DNA of 64,000 bases from Eledone cirrhosa. Lineage: Eukaryota. Shown piece after piece: positions 10,577 to 56,092 of the stretch. The stretch spans positions 48,174,001-48,238,000 of the forward strand of contig OZ024750.1 in NCBI GenBank assembly GCA_964016885.1, in the 5' to 3' direction. Position 1 is the first letter of the stretch; each line of letters opens with the position of its first letter. Below the pieces are notes generated by a model, which was given only the letters and a program-made list of their open reading frames with translations, did no database searches and was not told where the DNA came from. A program made the translations under genes and the position numbers.

Positions 10577-12041
10577 ATGAATTTTAGAAATTCTACAAAC
10601 ACTTTTGTTCTTTCTGATAAAACTAAAAATCTCTTTGAAGTTAATAGTACTTTGTATAACCAACTTTTAACTAATAGTATTACCAATAAATATCAATTAA
10701 CTAATAATAATACCTACACTACTATCAATAAAGAAGCTTAAGAACTAGCTAGTTCTTTACAAATAGACAACCGGATTGAAAGCCTAGCTAAGTGTAAATA
10801 ATATATTACCGTTAAAGACCATAAATTGGACTTTACTAATCGACCTAGTTGTAGACTGATTAACCCGGCTAAATCCGAGGTTGGCCTTGCAAGTAAGAAA
10901 AGCTAAGGAAAAATAATTCTCCAAATTAGAACTAACACTGACCTATCACAGTGGCTAAATACTTCCTCTGTTATTTCTTGGTTTAATAATATACAAGGTA
11001 AAAATAAGTGTAGATTTACCCAATTTGATATTGTCGATTTTTACCCATCTATTCTTGTTTCCTTATTAACTAATGCCTTAGATTTTGCAAGACCCTTCAT
11101 TAATATTTCTGAATTAGAAGAAGACATTATCTTTCATGCTAGAACAACTTTACTCTTTACTAATGATAATATTTGGGTTAAAAAGTCACACCCTGAAAAC
11201 TCTTTTGATGTTGCAATGGGTTCATATGACAGTGCGGATGTGTGTGACTTAGTAGGATTATTCCTTCTCCACACCCTCAAAGAGAAATTTCCGTCCCATA
11301 ATATCGGTTTATACCGTGATGACGGATTAGCATTGTTACTTCGTAGTAGTTTCTTTAGTATTTTGGCCCCCTACTTGTTGACCTGTCACTGTAAGATAGA
11401 TATGGCCGATTACTACTAACTCATAAAATTATTTCACTACAATCTCGTATTTAGTATTCCGTCCCACCTATTAAACTTTTCTATAGTTTAGCAGTACCAG
11501 TGAGAGACTTGATGGTTGTGGTAGGGGAATAGTAACCAGAAATTGTTTTTTTTTATAATATTTTTAACATTCTTATTATTCTTCTATATATTTACTCCAT
11601 ATTGATTTACTTATTGTTTCGACTTCCTCCCCCTCCCCTTCCCTAGTATACTTCTATTGACCTCTTATCCTTGGGATCCTGCTGTAGTTGGCACTATCAA
11701 CGCACGACTGGGTTTCCTCCAGTCCCTCTCCCTCTTTCTTCTACTGGCAAGTTCAGCTACCCCTTCCTTCCATTAAATGCCATAATAGAATTATGTGTCT
11801 CAACAACAAACTTTTGACCAATCCTTGTGACAATCACTTTTACCATATACGGAATTACCCCCTGAGATGCTCGGCTATTCATGTACCGAGATAAAAATGT
11901 TCATTTATCCAGAATTCACCGTCGAAACAGATTGAGCTCAGCCTTCGGGTCCTACTCGTTCCTATTACCCACTCTACTGTCCTAAGTATTGAACAATTTG
12001 GTGCGTTATGGTCCATCTGGTTCCTTACCACATTTCCTTCG

Positions 12042-12043
<2 letters not shown>
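10577..12043 (+). mobile_element. Internally deleted Hydra-clade PLE: RT fragment 10580-11340 plus family-A pLTR/tail
   Basis: [71 protein letters not shown]; 3' part matches 48050-48577; ends in (TA)n. Confidence 0.88.
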
Positions 12044-12077
<34 letters not shown>

Positions 12078-12299
12078 GCGTGTGTATACATGTATATATG
12101 TGTGTATGTGTTTGTATGTATATATGTATGTGTGTGACTTTATTTATGTTTATATTATACAAAATTATATATATATATATATATATATACAAATACATAT
12201 ACAATGATATATATATATATGCATACACATATATATATACATATATATCCATATGTAAACACATACATATACACACACATACATACGTACACATACATA

Positions 12300-13400
12300 C
12301 ATGCTGTTCTTTTTTCGCTGTTTAAAAGAAGCGACATGTGCATAATACCTGCTTTGAATCTGTCCTGAGTCATGCCAACATGTTGTTCACTCCTGGCTGG
12401 CTGGTTATTAATTATCGGTGTCAATTTGGCCTCAAACACAGTGGATTTAATATTACATTTAGCCTGTAATGGACATTCTTCCGGATTCCTGCAACTGCAT
12501 CCTGGATGTACCCTCGTTCGATTAGAATTGGTAATTTTAGTCTTCATTCATTGACAGCAAGAGTAAATTATTTTGACTACATTTCTATTGAATATCTTAT
12601 ATCTATGATTAGGGGAAAGGTGTTTGTCTAGCAGGTCGAGGAATGTCCTTCCTACATTAGTTTTTACAAATAATAAGGATTCAGCGATAGAGGGGTAAAA
12701 ATCAACAATATCAAATTGGGTAAATCTACACTTAATTTGTCCTTGTTAAACCAAGAAATAACAGAGGTTGTATTTAATCATAGTGATAAGTCAGTCTTAG
12801 TTCTTATTTGGAGTATTATTTTTCTTAAGATTTTTTTTACTTGGAAGGCCAACTTCAGATTTAGCAGTGTTAATAAATCTACAGCTACGTAGATTAGTAA
12901 TGTCTGATTTATGGTCTTTAAGTGTAATATATCTTTACGTTTAGCTAGGCTTTCAATCCGGTTATCTATTTTTAAAATACTAGCTAGGTCTTTGGCTTCA
13001 TTATTAATGGTATTGTAGGTATTAATGTTAGCTATTTGATATTTGGTGGTAATGCTATCTGTTAAAAGTTGGTTATACAAAATATTATTTACTTCAAAAA
13101 GATTTTTAGTGTTATCGGAAAAGACAAAAGTATTTGTAGAGTGTTTAAAGTTAGAAATATCGTTAGATAGTTTAGATTCAATGCTATTGTTGTACTTACG
13201 ATATCTGATTTCACTAAATAAGTTAACTAGGTTTAATTCGAAGTCGGCCATGTCTTTAATTCTAGGTGGGTATTTGCTGTCAACATAGTCATTGGTATCA
13301 GTACTGAAGTATCCATTGTAAACTATTGCAATCCATCTCATTCTTTTAAATAGTTGTTCAATGTTATCAATAAGCAGTTTGGTATAGGTTATCTCATGTT
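12300..13400 (-). pseudogene. Hydra-clade PLE ORF remnant (N-terminus/RT start fused by deletion to linker/EN start)
   Basis: YTKLLIDNIEQLFKRMRW, SDNTKNLFEVN, QFDIVDFYPSI then jumps to KTNVGRTFL..; CSCRNPEECPL (CxCx5C), HVGMTQDRFK. Confidence 0.88.
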
Positions 13401-13478
13401 GTGTATTACATAACTAATAAGATCTGTAGCCTACATAGAGCACTCTTTTTTCCTGTACTTTTCCGACTAAATTAACTC

Positions 13479-14166
<688 letters not shown>

Positions 14167-14901
14167 AATGAATAATAATAGGTAGACATCATAAAAAGGT
14201 AATTTATTCCGTGTGCTCACAAATGTTTCCACGGTGGTACTACAGCCTAGTTATGCTATGTGCAAATGTACAACTATTTGCAGAACTCAAATATCCAATG
14301 CTGTGACCACTGTATCCTCAGAGCAGACTGGTTTAAATGTACAATGTAAATACCCTTAAGTGGGGTTGTTGGAGAAGCTAGATTAGAAAAGGAAGAGAGA
14401 AAAGAAGGGGAGAGAGAGAAAGATATGCTGGGGTTGGAGAGATAGGAGAGTGTGGTTTGTAGATATCTTAATTAACATGTTATGGTAGGGGTTTTATTAT
14501 ACTGGTTACTTATGAAGAGATGCGTTGATAGTTAAGGTCAGAATTATTTATTGCCCCAGAGGGCAGGTTCATAGATGTGGAGTGGGAGGTAGGCCAAAGT
14601 CGAGAGAGAGAGAGTTTAATGGATGTAGATAGAGACATAGAGAGGGGACAGACGCAGTCTATGTGGTGAGTGAACTCTGGGTTCGTAGTAGTAATCTGAG
14701 AATTGCACTGAGTTACCATTTATAGTGATAAGCAGTGTATTGTCTTGTAGTGTGGGGGAAGAGAAGGTGGTTAGCTAGAAAGCGATGTTATTGTTACGGG
14801 TTCGAATGTTAAGTTAATTTATAGTGAGAGAATTTAACTTTTAGTTTGTGGTTGCAGTATAATGATCGTTCGATTCTATCGTTAAGTAGTTTGTTTTTGG
14901 A

Positions 14902-17038
14902 AACCCTCATCTCGATGCTTTCGAACAAGATTTAATGAAAACGACTATGAACATTAAGTTCAACAAACATAGAAATAATGAGCTGCAGAGCAACATGAAG
15001 GCACTATTCCGAAGACTTCAAAATACCAATGGAATTGTTTTGAAAGCTGACAAGACCTCTAACGTGTATACCATGGATATCGATACGTACAATAGCTTCA
15101 TACGCAACGAACTACACAAACAATATAGAAAAACAAATGAAACTACGCTAGCAAATATTAACAACGAGGCATATAAAGTGGTGAAGAATCTCAAGATAGA
15201 CGATAGAACCGAGCCGATTATACCCGCTACCCCCACCTTCAACCTGAAGGACCATAAGGTAAATTTTGACTCTAACCCTAAGATTAGACTTATATGCCCT
15301 TCTAAATCAGACATAGGAAAAATTAGCAAACATATACTTGACAGAGTAATAACTCAAGTGAAAAAGAAAATTGAAATTAAATTATGGTGCAAGACTAGCG
15401 AAGCAATTCGCTGGTTTAATAACGTTAAGAATAAGAATAAATCTAAGTTTATACAATTTGACATAGACGAATACTACTCTTCAATCTCACCAAGCACTTT
15501 ACGTAAGGCCCTATCGTTTGCTAAGGCCAATTCTGACCTAACGGTGGACGAAATTAATATTATTCTCGAGGCTAGAAAAACTATTATTGAGTTTGATAAC
15601 TGCTACTGGGAACGTAAGTACAGACCCACAAACTTCGACATTACCATGGGTTCCAACGACTCAGCGGAAGTCACGGACCTTGTGGGAATTTACATAGCCC
15701 TCATACTACATAATACATTTAGTAATCTACAGGGGGGGGGGGGTATACAGAGATGACGGGCTCTTATTAGTTAATAACTTGAATAACCAAAATCTGGAAA
15801 GGCTACGGAAACATATTAGAAAATCTTTTAGTGAACTGGGTCTAAAAATAACATATGAATACAATCATAAAGTAGTAAACTTTCTGGACGTAACTCTTAA
15901 TTTGAATACCGAACAGATACGACCCTTCCACAAGATGAATGAGAACCTTACGTATATTAACTTTAACTCAAACCACCGACACTCCATTATCAAATCTGTT
16001 CCCCGGAATATTTCTCTTAGAATCTCTCGCCTATCGTCTAACTCTGATATTTTTAGTGAACACGCTGAATACTACAATAATGCATTAAGGAATGCTGACC
16101 AACGGGATACAATAGAATACATTGATAGGAATCTCCATAACACACATAGCTCTACACGAAATCAAGGAATACGTAACCGGGGGACTAAAATACAAGCGCA
16201 CACACACAGTACCACCAGACATACTAATAATAGAAGATCACCACCAAATAAATCACGTTGTAGAAAGTATATCTAGTACAATCCTAATTTTAATTCCTCG
16301 ATTAGTACAAAACTATCTCTTTCATTCTTTAAGTTAATCAACAAACATTTCACTAGTTCCCATAAATACAGCAACATTCTGAACTCTAAAACTATTAGAC
16401 TATCATACTCCACGGCACCAAACGTTGAAGCACACATACAAAAACTTAACTTAAAGCAATTAAACAACACTACAAAACAAAATATTTTAGTAACATATGT
16501 GCAGAACGTAATATCTGCCTCACAACCACTAAATGGGAGACGGGTATTACACAATCCACCTGTACTGCTATCAGAACCTATCCATGGTATACCCGCTACC
16601 CGCAACAAATTATGTAACTGCCATCTACCTGAAAGATGTCCATTGAAGAATGAATGCCTAAAGTCCAACATTGTTTACCAATGCACGGTTTAATCGAACG
16701 ACCAGAAATGGTATTATATCGGATCGAACACCACCTAGTTTAAATCTCGCTGGTACCGTCATCGATTCTCAATCAAACATCCTAATCACCGTTTTGCGAC
16801 CACGCTCGCCAACAAGACTTGGCAACTCCGTGAACGCAACTAACAGTTCACCTTAAAATGGGATATACTTTCCAGCGCAAGTGCATATCGGAGTGGATTG
16901 TAATACTGCAGGTTATGTAACCTTGAACTCTTTTACATATTAAAATCCCAAAACAAACTACTTAACGATAGAATCGAACGATCATTATACTGCAACCACA
17001 AACTAAAAGCTAAATTCTCTCACTATAAAATAACTTAA
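14902..17038 (+). pseudogene. Disrupted PLE reverse transcriptase + GIY-YIG endonuclease ORF
   Basis: KADKT, LKDHK..F..NP..RLICPSKS, FIQFDIDEYYSSI, FDITMGSNDSAEV.DLVG, YRDDG (frameshift at the G-run ~15732-15743), VNFLDVTLNL, CNCHLPERCPL (CxCx5C linker typical of Hydra PLEs), IVY...YIG, CRLC, LLNDR..CNH; several in-frame stops. Confidence 0.92.
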
Positions 17039-17540
17039 CATTCGAACCCGTAACTATAACACCGCTTTCTAGCTAACCACCTCCTCTTCCCCCACACTAC
17101 CGACAATACACTGCTTATCACTATAAATGGTAACTCAGTGCAATTCTCAGATTACTACTACGAACCCAGAGTTCACTCACCACATAGACTTCGTCTGTCC
17201 CCTCTCTATCTCTCTCTCTACATCCATTACACACACACTCTCTCTCTCTCTCGCCTTTGGCCTACCTCCCTCTCCACATCTATGAACCTGCCCTCTGGGG
17301 CAATAAATAATTCCGACATTAACTATCAACGCATCTCTTCAAAAGTAACCAGTATAATAAAACCCCTACCATAACATGTTGATTAAGATATCTACAAACA
17401 ACTCTCTCCTATCTCTCCAACCCCCGCATATCTTTCTCTCTCTCTCTCTCTCTCTCCCCTACTTTTCTCTCTTCCTTTTCTACTCTATTTTCTCCAACAA
17501 CCCCACTTAAGGGTATTTACATTGTACATTTAAACCAGTC

Positions 17541-17652
17541 TGCTCTGAGGATAAAGTGGTCACATCACTGGATATTTGAGTTCTGCAAATAGTTGTACAT
17601 TTGCACATAGCATAACTAGGCTGTAGTACCACCGTGGAAACATTTGTAAGCA
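17541..17652 (+). ncRNA. Type I hammerhead ribozyme with extended stem II (inverted copy at ~14213-14325)
   Basis: tgct-CTGAGGA-(~85 nt foldable insert)-GAAA-catttg-TA-agca, followed by AATAAA. Confidence 0.7.
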
Positions 17653-17861
17653 CACGGAATAAATTACCTTTTTATGATGTCTACCTGTTATTATTCATTC
17701 TTTATATACACTCGGGAATACAGAAGGATCAGGAACTAAGTTTCTTCAACAATTCTTCCATAACTCGTAGAGTAACCTCTCACCGTACGTCAACTATATC
17801 CAGTGTAGTAATTAACCATTACTACATCTAGGATAATCCTATACCTAATATATATATATAT

Positions 17862-19742
17862 TAGGTATAGGAATTCTTTCACGGACCCAAACAAAAAATC
17901 TTCAACATCACTATCAGGCTTACTCTGGAAACTTAAACATAATAACGTTGGATATTCGATGGTTTTGAATATAGTCTCAACAGGGATTCCTTTTAATTCC
18001 TCTTCTGAGACATGTGACCTCTGCGCGGAGGTGATATTCTTTATACTAAAATCTAAACATTCCCTTAATTTACGGACCAATTTATTCAGTTGCTGCAGAC
18101 ATAGATTGAACTCAACTTTTAAATATAAACATAAATTTAAAATGTAGTATATTTACTTAAGATTTTTAATTATTTATGAAACTTGGCGATAAATCTTTCG
18201 ATTCCTTCAATTTTTTAAACCTTCTTCATGAGTATATAATTAATGATGTAATTAAACTACCTTAAAATGATGATGCTCCTAATCTTCTGAATACATTTTT
18301 AAGCTAGATAAACTTGTATAATAAATATAAGAGCATCTGTAGAACAACCGGGTATCCTAAAGTTTTTTTTTTTTTTTTTTTTTTTTTTTTGAATGATTTC
18401 TGCTAAATAAGTTTTGTTGAATAATTTTGGTTTTGTTTGCTTTTGATTCTGATTGCTTCTAATGAACTTGGCAATATATTGTCAAATAAATTTGAAGGGT
18501 TGATTTCTGTGGTTGATATGCGGGGCACACTGTGTTTTCTTACGGCCCTAGATACTCTGGGGAGTGAAATATTATTGGCGTTTTTAATATATTGATATCT
18601 GTTGTCTATTCTATGCTTGAACGATAATCATGTAAGAGAGGGCAAGAATATTATTATTAATAATGTATATTTTATGTATATATATATGTATGTACATATA
18701 TGTATGGTAGAATCTTTTGTAACGCAATGAAGATTTTCATGTGAAATAAAAATTTACAGAGCTGATCACGTAAACTCACATGTGTGTCTATAATGTCAAC
18801 TTGAATTTGAGATAACCTTCTCTTTTTCTTTCTCTTTTTTCTTTTTTCTTTTTTCATGAAAATACATATATACTTATGTATTTCAGTATTTTTTTTGAAG
18901 TTTTATCTCAGATTTTGATTATAAACCTAAGAATTTTTAAACTAAACATATAGTCATTATTTTTTTACACATTATTGATATGTGTCTCATTCATGAATAT
19001 TGATATTTACATTATAATACCTAATTCATAAGAATTGATAGACTGATGAAACATAATATTTTAAAACTATCATCTTTATTTCTGAATATATCTCTTCTCC
19101 TCCTCCCTCTACACTTGACGGGACTGATGTATCGGCTGATTTAACTCTACCTCCTGTATCTCACCCCTCCCCTATCTCTCCCACCTCCTATAATAGATAT
19201 TACTCGATCTACCTCTTTTCTCCCACCACCTATAACTCTTTCTACCTCTCTTTATTTATTTTTATTTTTATTTTTATTTCTCTCTGTATCCTTAACACTA
19301 TAACTAAATAAATAAATAAATAAATAATTACAGTACCCCCTTCCCTCCTAAATCTCTCATTTGTACGTTATTCATTTTTCGCCTCCTCAATATTTCTCTC
19401 TCCCATATCTCTCTCTCTCTATCTCGCTCTGTTGTTTTTTCTTTACATACATTTCTTCATTTTCTTCGCCTTCCTCTCTAACTGTCCTTAGCAGTATACA
19501 CTTTCTTTCTTTTTTCTCTTCGTCTTTCTTTCTAACTGTCCTTAACATTTTCACTACCAAAACAACTTTTTAAATGGAAGTTGTAAAGGTTTAAGGTATG
19601 TCAAATTTATTTATAAAACTGTTTATATATTGTATTTTGTCTGAAGAGGGCATACCATATTTTTAATATGATATCCCTGAAATATATATAATGAAATAAA
19701 TATGGTTTTATAAATGTAGTTTCCATTTGTTTAATATCGTAT
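17862..19742 (+). mobile_element. Hydra-type PLE 3' fragment, family B (EN C-terminus, long 3' region, HHR at ~19634-19697)
   Basis: TSLSGLLWKLK..CDLCAEVIFFIL..LNLR..CCRHR; homologous to 41612-43446; CTGAAGA..GAAA tatata TA then AATAAA. Confidence 0.82.
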
Positions 19743-40482: not shown

Positions 40483-40737
40483 GTGAAGGTGCATGGCTTA
40501 GTGGTTAGAGCATTGGGCTTTCAATCGAAAGGTTGTGAGTTCAATTCTCGCACCTGGTGATGTTTTGTTTCCTTGAGCAATACACTTTATTTCATGTTGC
40601 TCCAGTTTACTCAGCTGTAGAAATGAGTACATGCCCGCCCAGGCAGTGGGATGACGTTATCTTATGGCTAAAACAGCACAACGTGCTCTGACCAGCGGCG
40701 CAAATTGGTGCCCGACAGACTGGTCGGTCAAGGTGAT
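40483..40737 (+). mobile_element. tRNA-derived SINE family 2 with CORE-like central domain
   Basis: gtgaaggtgcatggcttagtggttagagc (A-box), gagttcaattc (B-box), ccttgagcaatacacttt..ctcagctgtagaaatgag. Confidence 0.75.
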
Positions 40738-50933: not shown

Positions 50934-51953
50934 CACATACGCATACATTCAGATACACAAATACACACACACACACACGCACACACAATACATACATCCA
51001 CATGCACACACATACACACACACACACACACACACATATATACACATACATACACCCACACACAGAGAAATGGCCTCCAAATATATATATATATATGCAT
51101 ACATACACATATATTTTTTCCATAATATAAGAAGTTGGGACAGTAAAATTAAAATACAAGTCATTCTGATCACATTGAGTTTTTCATGTAGATTGGGCCC
51201 CGCAACCGACAGTGGTCAATTCTGTGTGCGCATATATATATAGATATATGTGTGTGCACGTGCAGGGTTTAACATGGATGTGTTGGTCACACACAGGCAT
51301 GGTCTGTCAACGAATAAACCTGATTCTACAGAATTGGTCTCTGGTCTTTAATAGTAGTGATTCCGTGCGTATGTGTGTTTATATTTTATGACAATTCTAT
51401 TGGTGTGATAACCCGTTTAGTTTTGGTTTAAATTTGTTAAGGAATAGATTTTCTTTGTTTATTCTTTGTTGCTGTGTGAACGAATCTGAGCACTTGTAGA
51501 AGGGGAAGATTTTAAAGTTGGGTAGTGTCATTCCTGCGCAGTTCGCAATATGGCTGGTCAAGGGGATTTTTCTTGTGTTAGCGTCCCGGATTTGTTGGCG
51601 GTGGATGGTCATTCTTTTGCGTAATGAGGTGCCCGTCTGTCCTATGTAGTTGTGTTTGCACCCACCGCAAGTTATTGCGTAAATCAAGTTCTCCGAGTTG
51701 CAGGTGAAATTGTTTTTTACTGTAAATGTTTGGCCATCTTTGAATGTAAATGTTTGTCCATCAGTGAGGTAGAGGCACGTTCCACAGTTTGTTCTACCAC
51801 ATTTGGTAACTGTAGGGTTGGGGATTGGTTCGGGTATATTTGGTCCAGTGAGAATGCGTTTAAGTGATTTGGGTTGTGTGTGCATGTGGATGTATGTATT
51901 GTGTGCGTATGTGTGTGTGTATGTATGTGTGTATCTGGATGTATGCGTATGTG

Positions 51954-51990
<37 letters not shown>

Positions 51991-52253
51991 ATATATATAT
52001 GTGTGTGTATGTGTATATATGTATATGTGTGTGTGTGTGTATGTTTGTATGTGTGTATGTATATATATGTGTGTGTGTGTGTATGTATGCGTGGGTGTGT
52101 GTGTATATATATGTGTGTGTGTATGTATATATATGTGTGTGTGTGTATGTATGTGTGTATCTGGATGTATTTGTATGTATATATATGTGTGTGTGTGTGT
52201 GTGTGTATGTGTGTATGTATATGTATGTGTGTGTGTATGTGTGTGTATGTGTG

Positions 52254-52300
<47 letters not shown>

Positions 52301-52858
52301 GTCTATGTATATGTATATGTATGTATGTGTGGATGAAGGTATGTGTGTATATATAGGTGTAAGTGCACTAAATCCCTTTCTATCACGCTCCACTCTCCTA
52401 CCCACCACAGGAAGATATATGTATGTATATTGCTTCCACCCCCTCACTGACCAGCAGCTGGCCAGTTGGCCATTGCTAAATCTGACCTTTATAAAATAAC
52501 CCACACCCCAAATAACTTCTCATTCACTACCAGAAAGGGACACAGCAGTCAACCTGTTGTTGCTACCTAGATGAAAACTACTATGAAATCCCACAATGAA
52601 TTTTATACTTCAATTTTCAAATCTCAAATTTTAACTCTTCGTATTATTAATTTTTCTTAATATTAATCAACATTTGAAAAGATGGCTTTTGCAGACCCTT
52701 CGAAACCGGTCATTTTTTATACCCTTTATTATTTCCTTACCTTATAAAATTATATGTTTTTTCACAAAAAAGTATTCTGTCTCTTATATATTCCATGTGC
52801 CATTACCAACCTCAATTTTCTCTATAACCTTCGTTTTGTGTAGAAAATTACACTTTTC
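50021..52858 (-). mobile_element. Neptune-type PLE fragment with ~1-kb inverted arms (50021-~51010 / ~51875-52825) around a GIY-YIG fragment
   Basis: Near-identical inverted arms including an internal compound microsatellite; tail 52826-52858; TA flanks. Confidence 0.88.
51397..51875 (-). pseudogene. Truncated PLE GIY-YIG endonuclease with Cys-rich linker (Neptune-like)
   Basis: KCGRTNCGTC linker; FTCNSENLIYAITCGGCKHNYIGQT..LRKRMTIH..H (CCHH); KE..KLN; frame open to the stop codon but 5'-truncated at the inversion point. Confidence 0.88.
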
Positions 52859-53709
<851 letters not shown>

Positions 53710-54495
53710 GAAGAAAAGTATATGAATGCGGAATAGGTACGTTTGCCTATACACAAAGAAACGCTTGCATATACTTCGAATGATTGTCAATACCATTAGA
53801 ACGTTGGGTCGGATAATCAGGACGCCAAATAACTCCCCTGTTATGGGTTTCGCAACAGACGTACAACAGAGCAGCTGGTACGGTGTCAAACGCTGATGTT
53901 GCGCTTGTGAATATCATGTGATATGTATGTGTTAAACTTACATAATTAGTTTATAGTGTGAACAAGTTCAATTAATTAGTTAATCTTTTGGCTGAGTCCC
54001 TGGAGCGTTGGATAAAATATGTCTTCCGGTTACCTGTTTCATAAGTAAGAATCCCGCAGAGGCCAGCTTTCCCTTTCAGCCATTTGATGGGAAAAGGACA
54101 AAGTACCTTTCAATGGCGTGTAATGTTCGTAGTTCTTGAGGCGTTAAACGAGATGTCTTCTGAAGTTGAAATTAACCTGGCATATTTAAATCACAGAACT
54201 AACAACACGATCAATAATGTAATCAAACTGTGATAGAAACTGCAACAAACCACATGAAAGATCTGAAGATTCTAGAGTATTAATATCTATTCTAATTTCA
54301 TATAAATAATGTTCTAGATATTAGACTCATAGACACAACCTCGGAAAGAAACCTTATGTATATTTTTGGTGTTCAGAATTCATCATTAATCTATTATAGA
54401 CATATACACAACATATATATTTAGATATTTTTAAAGACATTTTAAATAGCATATCAATGTGACGGTAAATGCAGTATTTTCTTTCTTTCTTTATA

Positions 54496-55132
54496 TATAT
54501 TCAAATATATATCGCTATTTCAGAGCATTTATTCCAATTTCTAATTTCTGCCGGACCGGCAACCGCTCTTTCAAACCAGTTCCTGTACACAGCTAAGTAT
54601 TCTATAAGTCTCTAGCTGTGTCATTCTCGATAAAAGCACTGGATATGTAGTCCTGATGATTTCTAACAAGAATGAAACGCGTAGATTACTTCCCTTGCTT
54701 TTATCGAGAATCTAATTGTAATACGTGACGTATTCTATTCTATAGCGATTAGGTCTTCAAAATGTTTATTATAAACATACAGAATATTTTCGAATATTCT
54801 ATGTCTATATTCAAATATATATCGCTATTTCAGAGCATTTATTCCAATTTCTAATTTCTGCCGGACCGGCAACCGCTCTTTCAAACCAGTTCCTGTACAC
54901 AGCTAAGTATTCTATAAGTCTCTAGCTGTGTCATTCTCGATAAAAGCACTGGATATGTAGTCCTGATGATTTCTAACAAGAATGAAACGCGTAGATTACT
55001 TCCCTTGCTTTTATCGAGAATCTAATTGTAATACGTGACGTATTCTATTCTATAGCGATTAGGTCTTCAAAATGTTTATTATAAACATACAGAATATTTT
55101 CGAATATTCTATGTCTATATTCAAATATATAT
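54496..55132 (+). mobile_element. Tandem dimer of a 310-bp HHR-containing unit (non-LTR retrozyme-like)
   Basis: Identical units 54496-54805 and 54806-55115; HHRs at 54647-54689 and 54957-54999: gtagtc-CTGATGA-tttc..gaat-GAAA-cgcg-TA-gattac. Confidence 0.8.
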
Positions 55133-55148
55133 ATATATATATATATAT

Positions 55149-56043
55149 ATCAAGATAAGCAGAACAAGTAAAATTCAACCAATTTTTCAAAATAAATCAA
55201 AATTAATATACAATTAAAATTAATCAAAATTAAAAAATATAATATAAATATTTACCTATTCAAATGGCCCTAACTGTACAGTTTCACGGTGCAAAACATT
55301 AAATATCACGAGGATATTAATGGAAAAGCAACGATCATCAGAGAAGCATTTTCCTGTCCTAGGGTTAAAAACCCCAGGAACGACAAAATATATGACCTCA
55401 CTCCAACTAATACAGGTCTAACAGGTTGTGAAAGTGACCCGTAAATACATTGGTGTATAGTGAAGGCGGGAAATCGTAGACTAGCCGTCTATAATCGCTA
55501 CTAAAAAAGATTTTTAGCAACTAAATAGATCGACAAAGATTTATCTCTACATGCTGGAGATTATTGAATAAGGTTAATATATATCTGAGGGTACAATGTA
55601 CCGCCGGAAATATATAGTGTGTCTATGATTTAAGGTGGTTCTATGGTAATAATTTGATATACCAGAACTTAATATCAAGATAAGCAGAACAAGTAAAATT
55701 CAACCAATTTTTCAAAATAAATCAAAAAGGACAGGAAAATGCTTCTCTGATGATCGTTGCTTTTCCATTAATATCCTCGTGATATTTAATGTTTTGCACC
55801 GTGAAACTGTACAGTTAGGGCCATTTGAATAGGTAAATATGTATATTATATTTTTTAATTTTGATTAATTTTAATTGTATATTAATTTTGATTTATTTTG
55901 AAAAATTGGTTGAATTTTACTTGTTCTGCTTATCTTGATATTAAGTTCTGGTATATCAAATTATTACCATAGAACCACCTTAAATCATAGACACACTATA
56001 TATTTCCGGGGGTACATTGTACCCTCAGATATATATTAACCTT

Positions 56044-56048
<5 letters not shown>
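55149..56048. mobile_element. Fold-back insertion of a 525-bp ORF-less HHR unit (minus arm 55149-55727 = ~1.1 units; plus arm 55728-56048)
   Basis: caagataagcagaac at 55151 and 55676; 55566-55727 is the reverse complement of ~55886-56047; HHR 55737-55826 CTGATGA..GAAA-ctgtacag-TT. Confidence 0.82.

Positions 56049-56092
<44 letters not shown>

Follow-up and report, generated by a model that had tools for sequence, protein, structure and literature searches.

Metazoan non-LTR retrozymes, as described by Cervera and de la Pena (2020; PMC7229834) and by Li et al. (2026; 10.64898/2026.07.22.740005), are tandem repeats of 150-450-bp units that have a GC content below 50%, harbor one type I hammerhead ribozyme (HHR) per unit and contain no open reading frame (ORF). 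Circular RNAs of retrozymes are already known, and their copying into genomes by the enzymes of Penelope-like elements (PLEs) has rested on co-occurrence and on homology with pLTRs. PLE insertions are recognized by an inverted 5' copy, a tail of 30-40 nt at one end and a bias towards (TA)n (PMC8557442; PMC3846280). The account in PMC11167929 adds that the PLE protein, a predicted dimer, extends both target strands, and that two internal start sites bound the tail.

The dimer described here lies in a 64,000-nucleotide stretch of the genome of Eledone cirrhosa, hereafter the window. It belongs to a young family that shares the features of metazoan non-LTR retrozymes listed above: repeats of 310 bp with a GC content of 34%, in arms of up to 46 units, each unit holding a type I hammerhead (two consecutive ones at the window, with an Rfam score below gathering), and copies dispersed alongside PLEs in the genome. 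Its HHR has the short palindromic helix III described for axolotl HHR_Amex1 together with a U.U at the base of stem II, as in HHR_Amex2. By its genomic features the family is a retrozyme, and on these grounds a putative new addition to the metazoan non-LTR group.

The family also resembles endonuclease-bearing PLEs (PMC8557442; PMC3846280; PMC11167929) in its head-to-head copies, the 30-40-nt tail at one end (here 35 nt), the (TA)n microsatellite targets, the variable 5' ends and an HHR some 130-165 nt upstream of the 3' ends, although the window locus itself has no inverted copy. Unlike those elements, it has neither a reverse transcriptase (RT) nor a GIY-YIG ORF, no homologous pLTR was found at the loci sampled, and the whole element is the 310-nt unit, present in up to tens per arm. 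The non-autonomous Chlamys PLEs, e.g., MRC1 (PMC8557442), differ from the young family in that most are described as lacking canonical HHRs, their 3' end resembles that of an autonomous partner and their hosts are green algae.

The window dimer and its hammerheads

An exact 310-bp dimer had been proposed from the letters of the window, and this is confirmed, as TRF reports over 54496-55132 a tandem repeat of period 310 with 2.1 copies and 100% matches. The two units are identical, and the terminal 17 nt copy the initial 17 nt of the dimer. With unit positions (q) numbered from window position 54503, the locus is a single arm of 2.05 units that runs from q304 to q10 and terminates in (TA)13, with neither inverted arm nor tail; it is an atypical one-armed insertion that kept or received one arm only. 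The features of the dimer are the following:

54496..54805, + strand: repeat unit 1 (310 bp), by TRF and sequence comparison
54806..55115, + strand: repeat unit 2, identical to unit 1, by TRF and sequence comparison
55116..55132, + strand: partial third unit of 17 nt, whose 3' end passes into (TA)n at the first of the family's fixed ends (q1-10)
54647..54689, + strand: type I hammerhead 1, predicted cut after 54683
54647-54652/54684-54689, + strand: stem I of hammerhead 1
54653-54659, + strand: core CUGAUGA of hammerhead 1
54660/54673, + strand: U.U mismatch of hammerhead 1, below stem II at 54661-54664/54669-54672
54677-54682, + strand: palindrome of hammerhead 1
54957..54999, + strand: type I hammerhead 2, predicted cut after 54993
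54623..54711, + strand: 16-bp stem enclosing hammerhead 1 (54623-54638 with 54696-54711), found again at 54933-55021
54684..54993, + strand: predicted 310-nt monomer from double cleavage and putative circle, from cut sites and folds
54814..54848, + strand: segment corresponding to the 35-nt "tail", which is bounded by the two fixed 3' ends of the family, q about 1 and 36 (PMC11167929; PMC8557442)
54814, also 54504 and 55124, + strand: near-private A where the family majority has C, by genome-wide pattern search
55125..55150, no strand: (TA)13 target run, common to the dimer and a second hammerhead repeat family (55147-56051)

The absence of an ORF was borne out, no stop-to-stop frame of at least 100 aa overlapping the dimer. 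Of the TA flanks that the sequence-only reading described, the right one is a true (TA)13 run, while the left one did not hold.

Duplication of a single unit during assembly would explain the 100% identity of the two units and the observation that, among the sequencing runs examined, no read or contig spans the whole dimer. This is nevertheless highly improbable, given that exact arrays are the norm in the family and that unit-level variants are resolved in other arrays. In addition, a contig of run X2 connects the left flank to the unit over 53900-54521 with 0 differences, and an exact 43-nt contig crosses an A-type unit-unit junction in two of the three runs of one sample (X2 and X4), though this contig is not locus-specific. 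Cyclic contigs of 340 nt (runs X1, X3 and X6) were rejected as RNA circles, as tandem arrays give such contigs in assembly graphs. A TATA-plus-initiator arrangement at unit positions 4-38 was also set aside, because TA runs carry little weight at such loci. Should the + strand be transcribed, the two intact hammerheads are predicted to free one monomer; that the window locus is in fact expressed is possible but somewhat doubtful.

In each hammerhead a 6-bp stem I leads into the CUGAUGA core. Stem II, of 4 bp, has a U.U mismatch at its base and is followed by GAAA, and helix III amounts to 1-2 bp over the palindromic ACGCGU. The palindromic stem III noted earlier is present, and the 16-bp enclosing stem was recovered with a mean pair probability of 0.95. 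The label "minimal" turned out to name the wrong class. According to PMC4209133, the minimal HHR of PLE pLTRs has no helix III, a helix II of 7-8 bp and a helix I of 4-5 bp, as against 6 bp in helix I, 4 bp in helix II and a short palindromic helix III here, and under the definition given there the motif counts among the canonical type I HHRs of metazoans, a form thought to work as a dimer. At gathering level Rfam gave no match over the dimer; the hammerhead has a sub-threshold HH9 match of 19.2 bits (gathering score 52; E 0.066).

Folding calculations gave the unit z scores against shuffles of -4.3 (linear) and -4.6 (circular); the minus strand also reaches -4.8, and with the ribozyme module excluded the score is only -2.3. 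For the module on its own, a competitor of the active fold is more stable by 2.4 kcal/mol, and stem II has a probability of about 0.15 in the circular fold. Two palindromic segments co-fold at -9.5 kcal/mol, whereas a single segment does not fold. In these models the hammerhead looks weak, with its U.U stem-II base, its helix III of 1-2 bp and its more stable competitor. All the hairpin arms listed in the sequence-only reading are there, but two of the supposed 1-nt loops fold as 3-nt loops, and the atgtttat hairpin, its arms present, is not dominant in the circular fold.

Other hammerhead-bearing repeats occur nearby and elsewhere in the genome. The second family at 55147-56051 has a 525-bp unit with a hammerhead-like motif that includes a long stem II, a head-to-head arrangement, and ends at its positions ~4 and 114; 40 of 1,352 first-look candidates were scored, some of them tandem. 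Its left end at the window is the usual 3' end of that family, and it is an independent insertion that shares the TA run. Eight more hammerhead-like motifs with palindromic helix III, at window positions 19641, 20707, 26888, 41283, 43345, 43822, 44731 and 49613, are probably PLE ends. A short palindromic element (L125:2690-2840; L047:6477-6515) has a core and a U.U stem II that nearly match those of the young family, and is a possible ribozyme donor or pLTR lead. Yet another family (L149:495-620, L091, L045:1783-1815) shows the same design of U.U, 4-bp stem II and palindromic CUAG loop, suggesting that the weakness is one of design and not of decay.

Copy number and conservation of the ribozyme

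Searched across the 3.0-Gb assembly, a 25-nt pattern of the ribozyme gave 16,719 exact matches, and its control gave 0. As a count of exact pattern matches, made with no use of summed contig depths, this is a lower bound on the number of units, and it corresponds to about 5 Mb of sequence. Freeing six core positions of the pattern brought in just 132 further units, i.e., 132 of 16,851 differ there. Most of the copies sampled match the window unit at 97-100% identity, one subfamily standing at about 94%, and by our own estimate the family numbers 1,400-2,800 loci. The family is young and of high copy number, so that the dimer is neither a lone occurrence nor a chance fold. The dispersed copies that the sequence-only reading had asked a genome count to reveal accordingly exist, with at least 16,719 units genome-wide.

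Older relatives, of roughly 70-80% identity, retain the hammerhead and the enclosing stem through compensatory changes. In an alignment of 12 units, 88% of the cells are paired and both sides have changed in 18 of 29 pairs, as against 2-6 in slid controls, the rows being related and the structure drawn from the window row, so that the shuffle figures are not probabilities. Nine of the 15 pairs counted in the enclosing stem covary in the relatives. Conservation is highest over unit positions 240-106. In the usual numbering of hammerhead positions, N7 is permissive and exchange between C3-G8 and U3-A8 is known; this exchange, from C3-G8 to U3-A8, is found in 7 of the 12 aligned units. The C3-G8 pair also appears in PMC11167929.

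Within the young family, the common variants fall at N7, in loop II or on stem I wobbles, or else repair the U.U. None of 114 locus-fixed variant calls lies on the 12 core positions and 44 are at permissive hammerhead positions, an avoidance of the core that is not significant on its own (33 distinct sites, with about 1.3 expected in the core). The ribozyme is retained with covariation well above the slid controls (at most 6), and we hold it to be highly likely that it is functional in the family. Together with the tandem type I HHR units and the dispersed copies, the conserved ribozyme supports the identification of the dimer as a retrozyme.

Some of the older relatives, of 310-330 bp (L041-L047, L065, L068, L007:350-667), have a stronger helix III and U3-A8 cores, and those in which both arms are visible (L068, L024) have the same two ends as the young family. 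A distant relative (L132:2516-2700) shares the end module but ends in (CA)n, not (TA)n. Rfam searches of six relative loci returned mainly microsatellite noise.

Head-to-head arrays, their ends and their haplotypes

The insertion anatomy was tallied at 69 loci, of which 17 were the first by position on contig C1, 18 were best-hit loci and 34 were chosen for their variants. The typical locus is a clonal head-to-head array in (TA)n with two fixed ends. Two arms are present at 12 of the 17 position-chosen loci and at 52 of the 69 overall; the remaining five position-chosen loci show a single arm, which in one case borders an assembly gap and in another is accompanied by a short inverted stub. At all 12 position-chosen two-armed loci the outer ends fall into two classes, one lying at q300-10 and its counterpart at q27-45. 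Both classes are represented at 50 of the 52 two-armed loci, at ~q1 and ~q36, 35 nt apart, the two exceptions ending at a gap and at foreign sequence, and the same rule holds for L165-167, a long locus outside the tally. TATATA adjoins 112 of the 121 outer ends. Direct flank repeats of at least 10 nt occur at 6 of 52 loci, compared with 1.6% of 257 control pairs, in keeping with the target duplications, long or hidden, of PLE-mobilized elements. The loci are made up of units alone, with no LTR layout. At one of them (L035) each flank is an inverted copy of its counterpart across 26 nt, as might follow from insertion into the center of an older palindrome.

The inner junctions are variable, with 1-6-nt overlaps in 32 of 47 and use of the 16-bp stem in 2, and the two arms of a locus begin at unrelated unit positions. 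Arm length in this set has a median of 2.3 units and a maximum of 19. Arms cross the ribozyme cut site without a scar, and only 1 of 94 5' junctions is near it (q175-190). A 5' start that seemed to be fixed at unit positions 2-4 was no longer seen in position-chosen loci and was an artefact of search ranking.

The two fixed 3' ends that bound the 35-nt tail would be start sites of reverse transcription. Independent choice of start site would give like ends in half of the loci, and the one-of-each rule thus suggests that both active sites engage one RNA. Alternatively, the inverted arm might stem from fold-back, i.e., self-priming, of one cDNA (PMC3846280) and not from priming on both strands. 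Such a process would account for the short overlaps at the junctions, for the use of the 16-bp stem at two of them, and for the single haplotype common to both arms. It is improbable, as the arms begin at unrelated positions of the unit and as fold-back does not predict one outer end of each class. 'Twin priming' is an existing term for priming on both strands; in a literature search lying outside most subscription journals, no account was found of twin priming by PLEs or of head-to-head clonal retrozyme arrays. In the main texts of PMC7229834 and 10.64898/2026.07.22.740005 the words "tail" and "head-to-head" do not occur, and "inverted" occurs once, in the title of a reference.

The arms are clonal. 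At 33 loci with at least three units (326 units), 93 variant calls are fixed, i.e., present in all units of both arms, 75 are single and 16 are intermediate, the latter confined to 4 of the 33 loci. Many of the fixed types are sub-lineages common to several loci. Near-private haplotypes were checked genome-wide in two cases only, L177 and the window A. The haplotype 81A+195A has six occurrences in the assembly, all in L177 (six of six units, three per arm). The window A, at q2, is found in all three junctions of the window copy and gives six pattern matches genome-wide, two at the window, three as single units in arrays of other haplotypes and one in a diverged relative, and no multi-unit donor of this haplotype was found in the assembly. 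A variant fixed at a locus for which there is no multi-unit donor calls for a one-unit bottleneck at insertion, an argument that is weakened because a haploid assembly may lack some of the donors. That arms read through the cut site with no scar is suggestive of a ligated circle and, taken with the clonality of the arms, agrees with the rolling-circle copying of a single circular monomer by a Penelope-like enzyme, with priming on each of the two target strands.

The same PLE machinery might instead copy an uncut linear multimer of the donor array, with a hammerhead that acts slowly or in a different step, so that a circle is not needed. In the in vitro work of PMC11167929, insertion did not require HHR cleavage and the main substrate was uncut RNA, which counts against a circular template. 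The hammerhead fold is weak, and the sub-lineage haplotypes common to many clonal loci would also be explained by a homogeneous linear donor. On the other hand, some haplotypes are fixed in one locus with their multi-unit donor absent from the assembly, intermediate-frequency variants are found at so few loci, and the ribozyme covaries strongly. We therefore consider a linear template unlikely, and a circular RNA the likely template.

The source of long arrays is a related question. Li et al. favor local array amplification (10.64898/2026.07.22.740005), whereas the arrays of the young family look multi-unit from birth. On the model of those authors, a monomer, in the form of a solo pLTR-like piece, would insert and then grow like a satellite by unequal exchange, the window dimer being a local duplication. 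The window copy is indeed one-armed and bounded by a 17-nt direct repeat, and the long arms of L165-166 (46 units; G000:C1, 217.795-217.809 Mb) and L066+L038 contain repeated variant blocks, i.e., higher-order repeats, with a block offset of 11 units in L165-166. These two long arrays expanded locally at a later time. As an origin for the family's arrays, however, local growth is quite improbable, since young loci are multi-unit in both inverted arms, with one haplotype and ends at fixed sites, and since the short arm of L166 retains the founder type, so that growth looks secondary.

In the mosaic 46-unit arm of L165-166, all eight units with 81A come after a unit with 195A. A monomer cut from this array in the ribozyme register would match L177, which may thus be its daughter, but this is suggestive only, because 81A also forms a clonal lineage that lacks 195A (12 of 12 typed loci) and one extra mutation explains L177 equally well.

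A probable Penelope-like route of insertion

The insertion anatomy makes it very probable that PLE machinery lies behind the insertions, in line with the mobilization by PLEs proposed from the sequence. That these PLEs are local found no support, as the unit is absent from the PLE ends of the window and of 80 fetched PLE loci. The 80 loci, a small sample of thousands, comprised 30 with GIY-YIG, 20 with a long ORF (among the matches listed) and 30 of a second PLE group; neither these loci nor the window yielded a homologous pLTR, and weak matches turned out to be other non-coding HHR repeats. A scan of 192 fetched loci gave no PLE ORF running into a unit, and the retrozyme loci hold no RT or GIY-YIG ORF of the kind that an autonomous PLE carries. 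There are 10,595 GIY-YIG candidates in the genome, and 150 matches were scored. One ORF-bearing PLE (L124) is a 3,266-bp palindrome with two ends ~50 nt apart, a layout like that of the retrozyme loci.

In the window, broken PLE-like RT/endonuclease frames are seen at 10907-13413, 14890-18150 and 51397-52302, the last matching Pfam GIY-YIG (E 1.2e-6), and the PLE group at 17812 has 46,359 first-look candidates. A tRNA-like match (40487-40556; Rfam RF00005, 41.6 bits) is possibly the head of a SINE.

The following course of events is proposed. A multi-unit locus would be transcribed on the hammerhead strand, and two hammerheads are predicted to cut after GUA, probably slowly and through pairing of their ACGCGU palindromes, to release a 310-nt monomer. 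By analogy with other retrozymes (PMC7229834), a host ligase would close this monomer into a circle. A PLE protein, probably as a dimer, would then nick both strands of a (TA)n target, and cDNA synthesis would start on each strand at its own site, the two lying 35 nt from each other, which the observed fixed ends are taken to reflect. Each cDNA would travel around the template a variable number of times before being joined at microhomologies of 1-6 nt, the product from the putative circle being the clonal head-to-head array that is observed. Some long arrays would grow later by local duplication, as seen for two loci.

On balance, the dimer is one insertion of a young non-coding non-LTR retrozyme, probably copied from a 310-nt circle into (TA)n by a Penelope-like RT/endonuclease. 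This explanation is weakened by the weak fold of the hammerhead, by the mosaic long arrays, by the missing inverted arm and tail of the window copy, by the failure to find an autonomous partner among the PLE loci sampled, and by in vitro work on Xenopus, in which cleavage failed for eight of nine predicted retrozyme dimers (10.64898/2026.07.22.740005). For the wider proposal that the thousands of loci are single events, in which a PLE RT dimer on one circular RNA makes double rolling-circle copies into both (TA)n ends, we judge the chances to be even.

The young family is a natural record of very recent date, in which ends are fixed, haplotypes can be traced and the marks of mobility are unusually clear. 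It speaks against satellite growth of a purely local kind as the source of such arrays, and supplies a defined 310-nt template for existing in vitro assays of PLEs, so that the copying of retrozymes by PLEs and the origin of inverted copies and of the one-sided tail both become testable. If the double rolling-circle reading is true, the family would offer direct evidence from a genome for the birth of retrozyme arrays in animals as clonal concatemers of circles, and the inverted copy and one-sided tail of PLEs would be explained as twin priming on one RNA.
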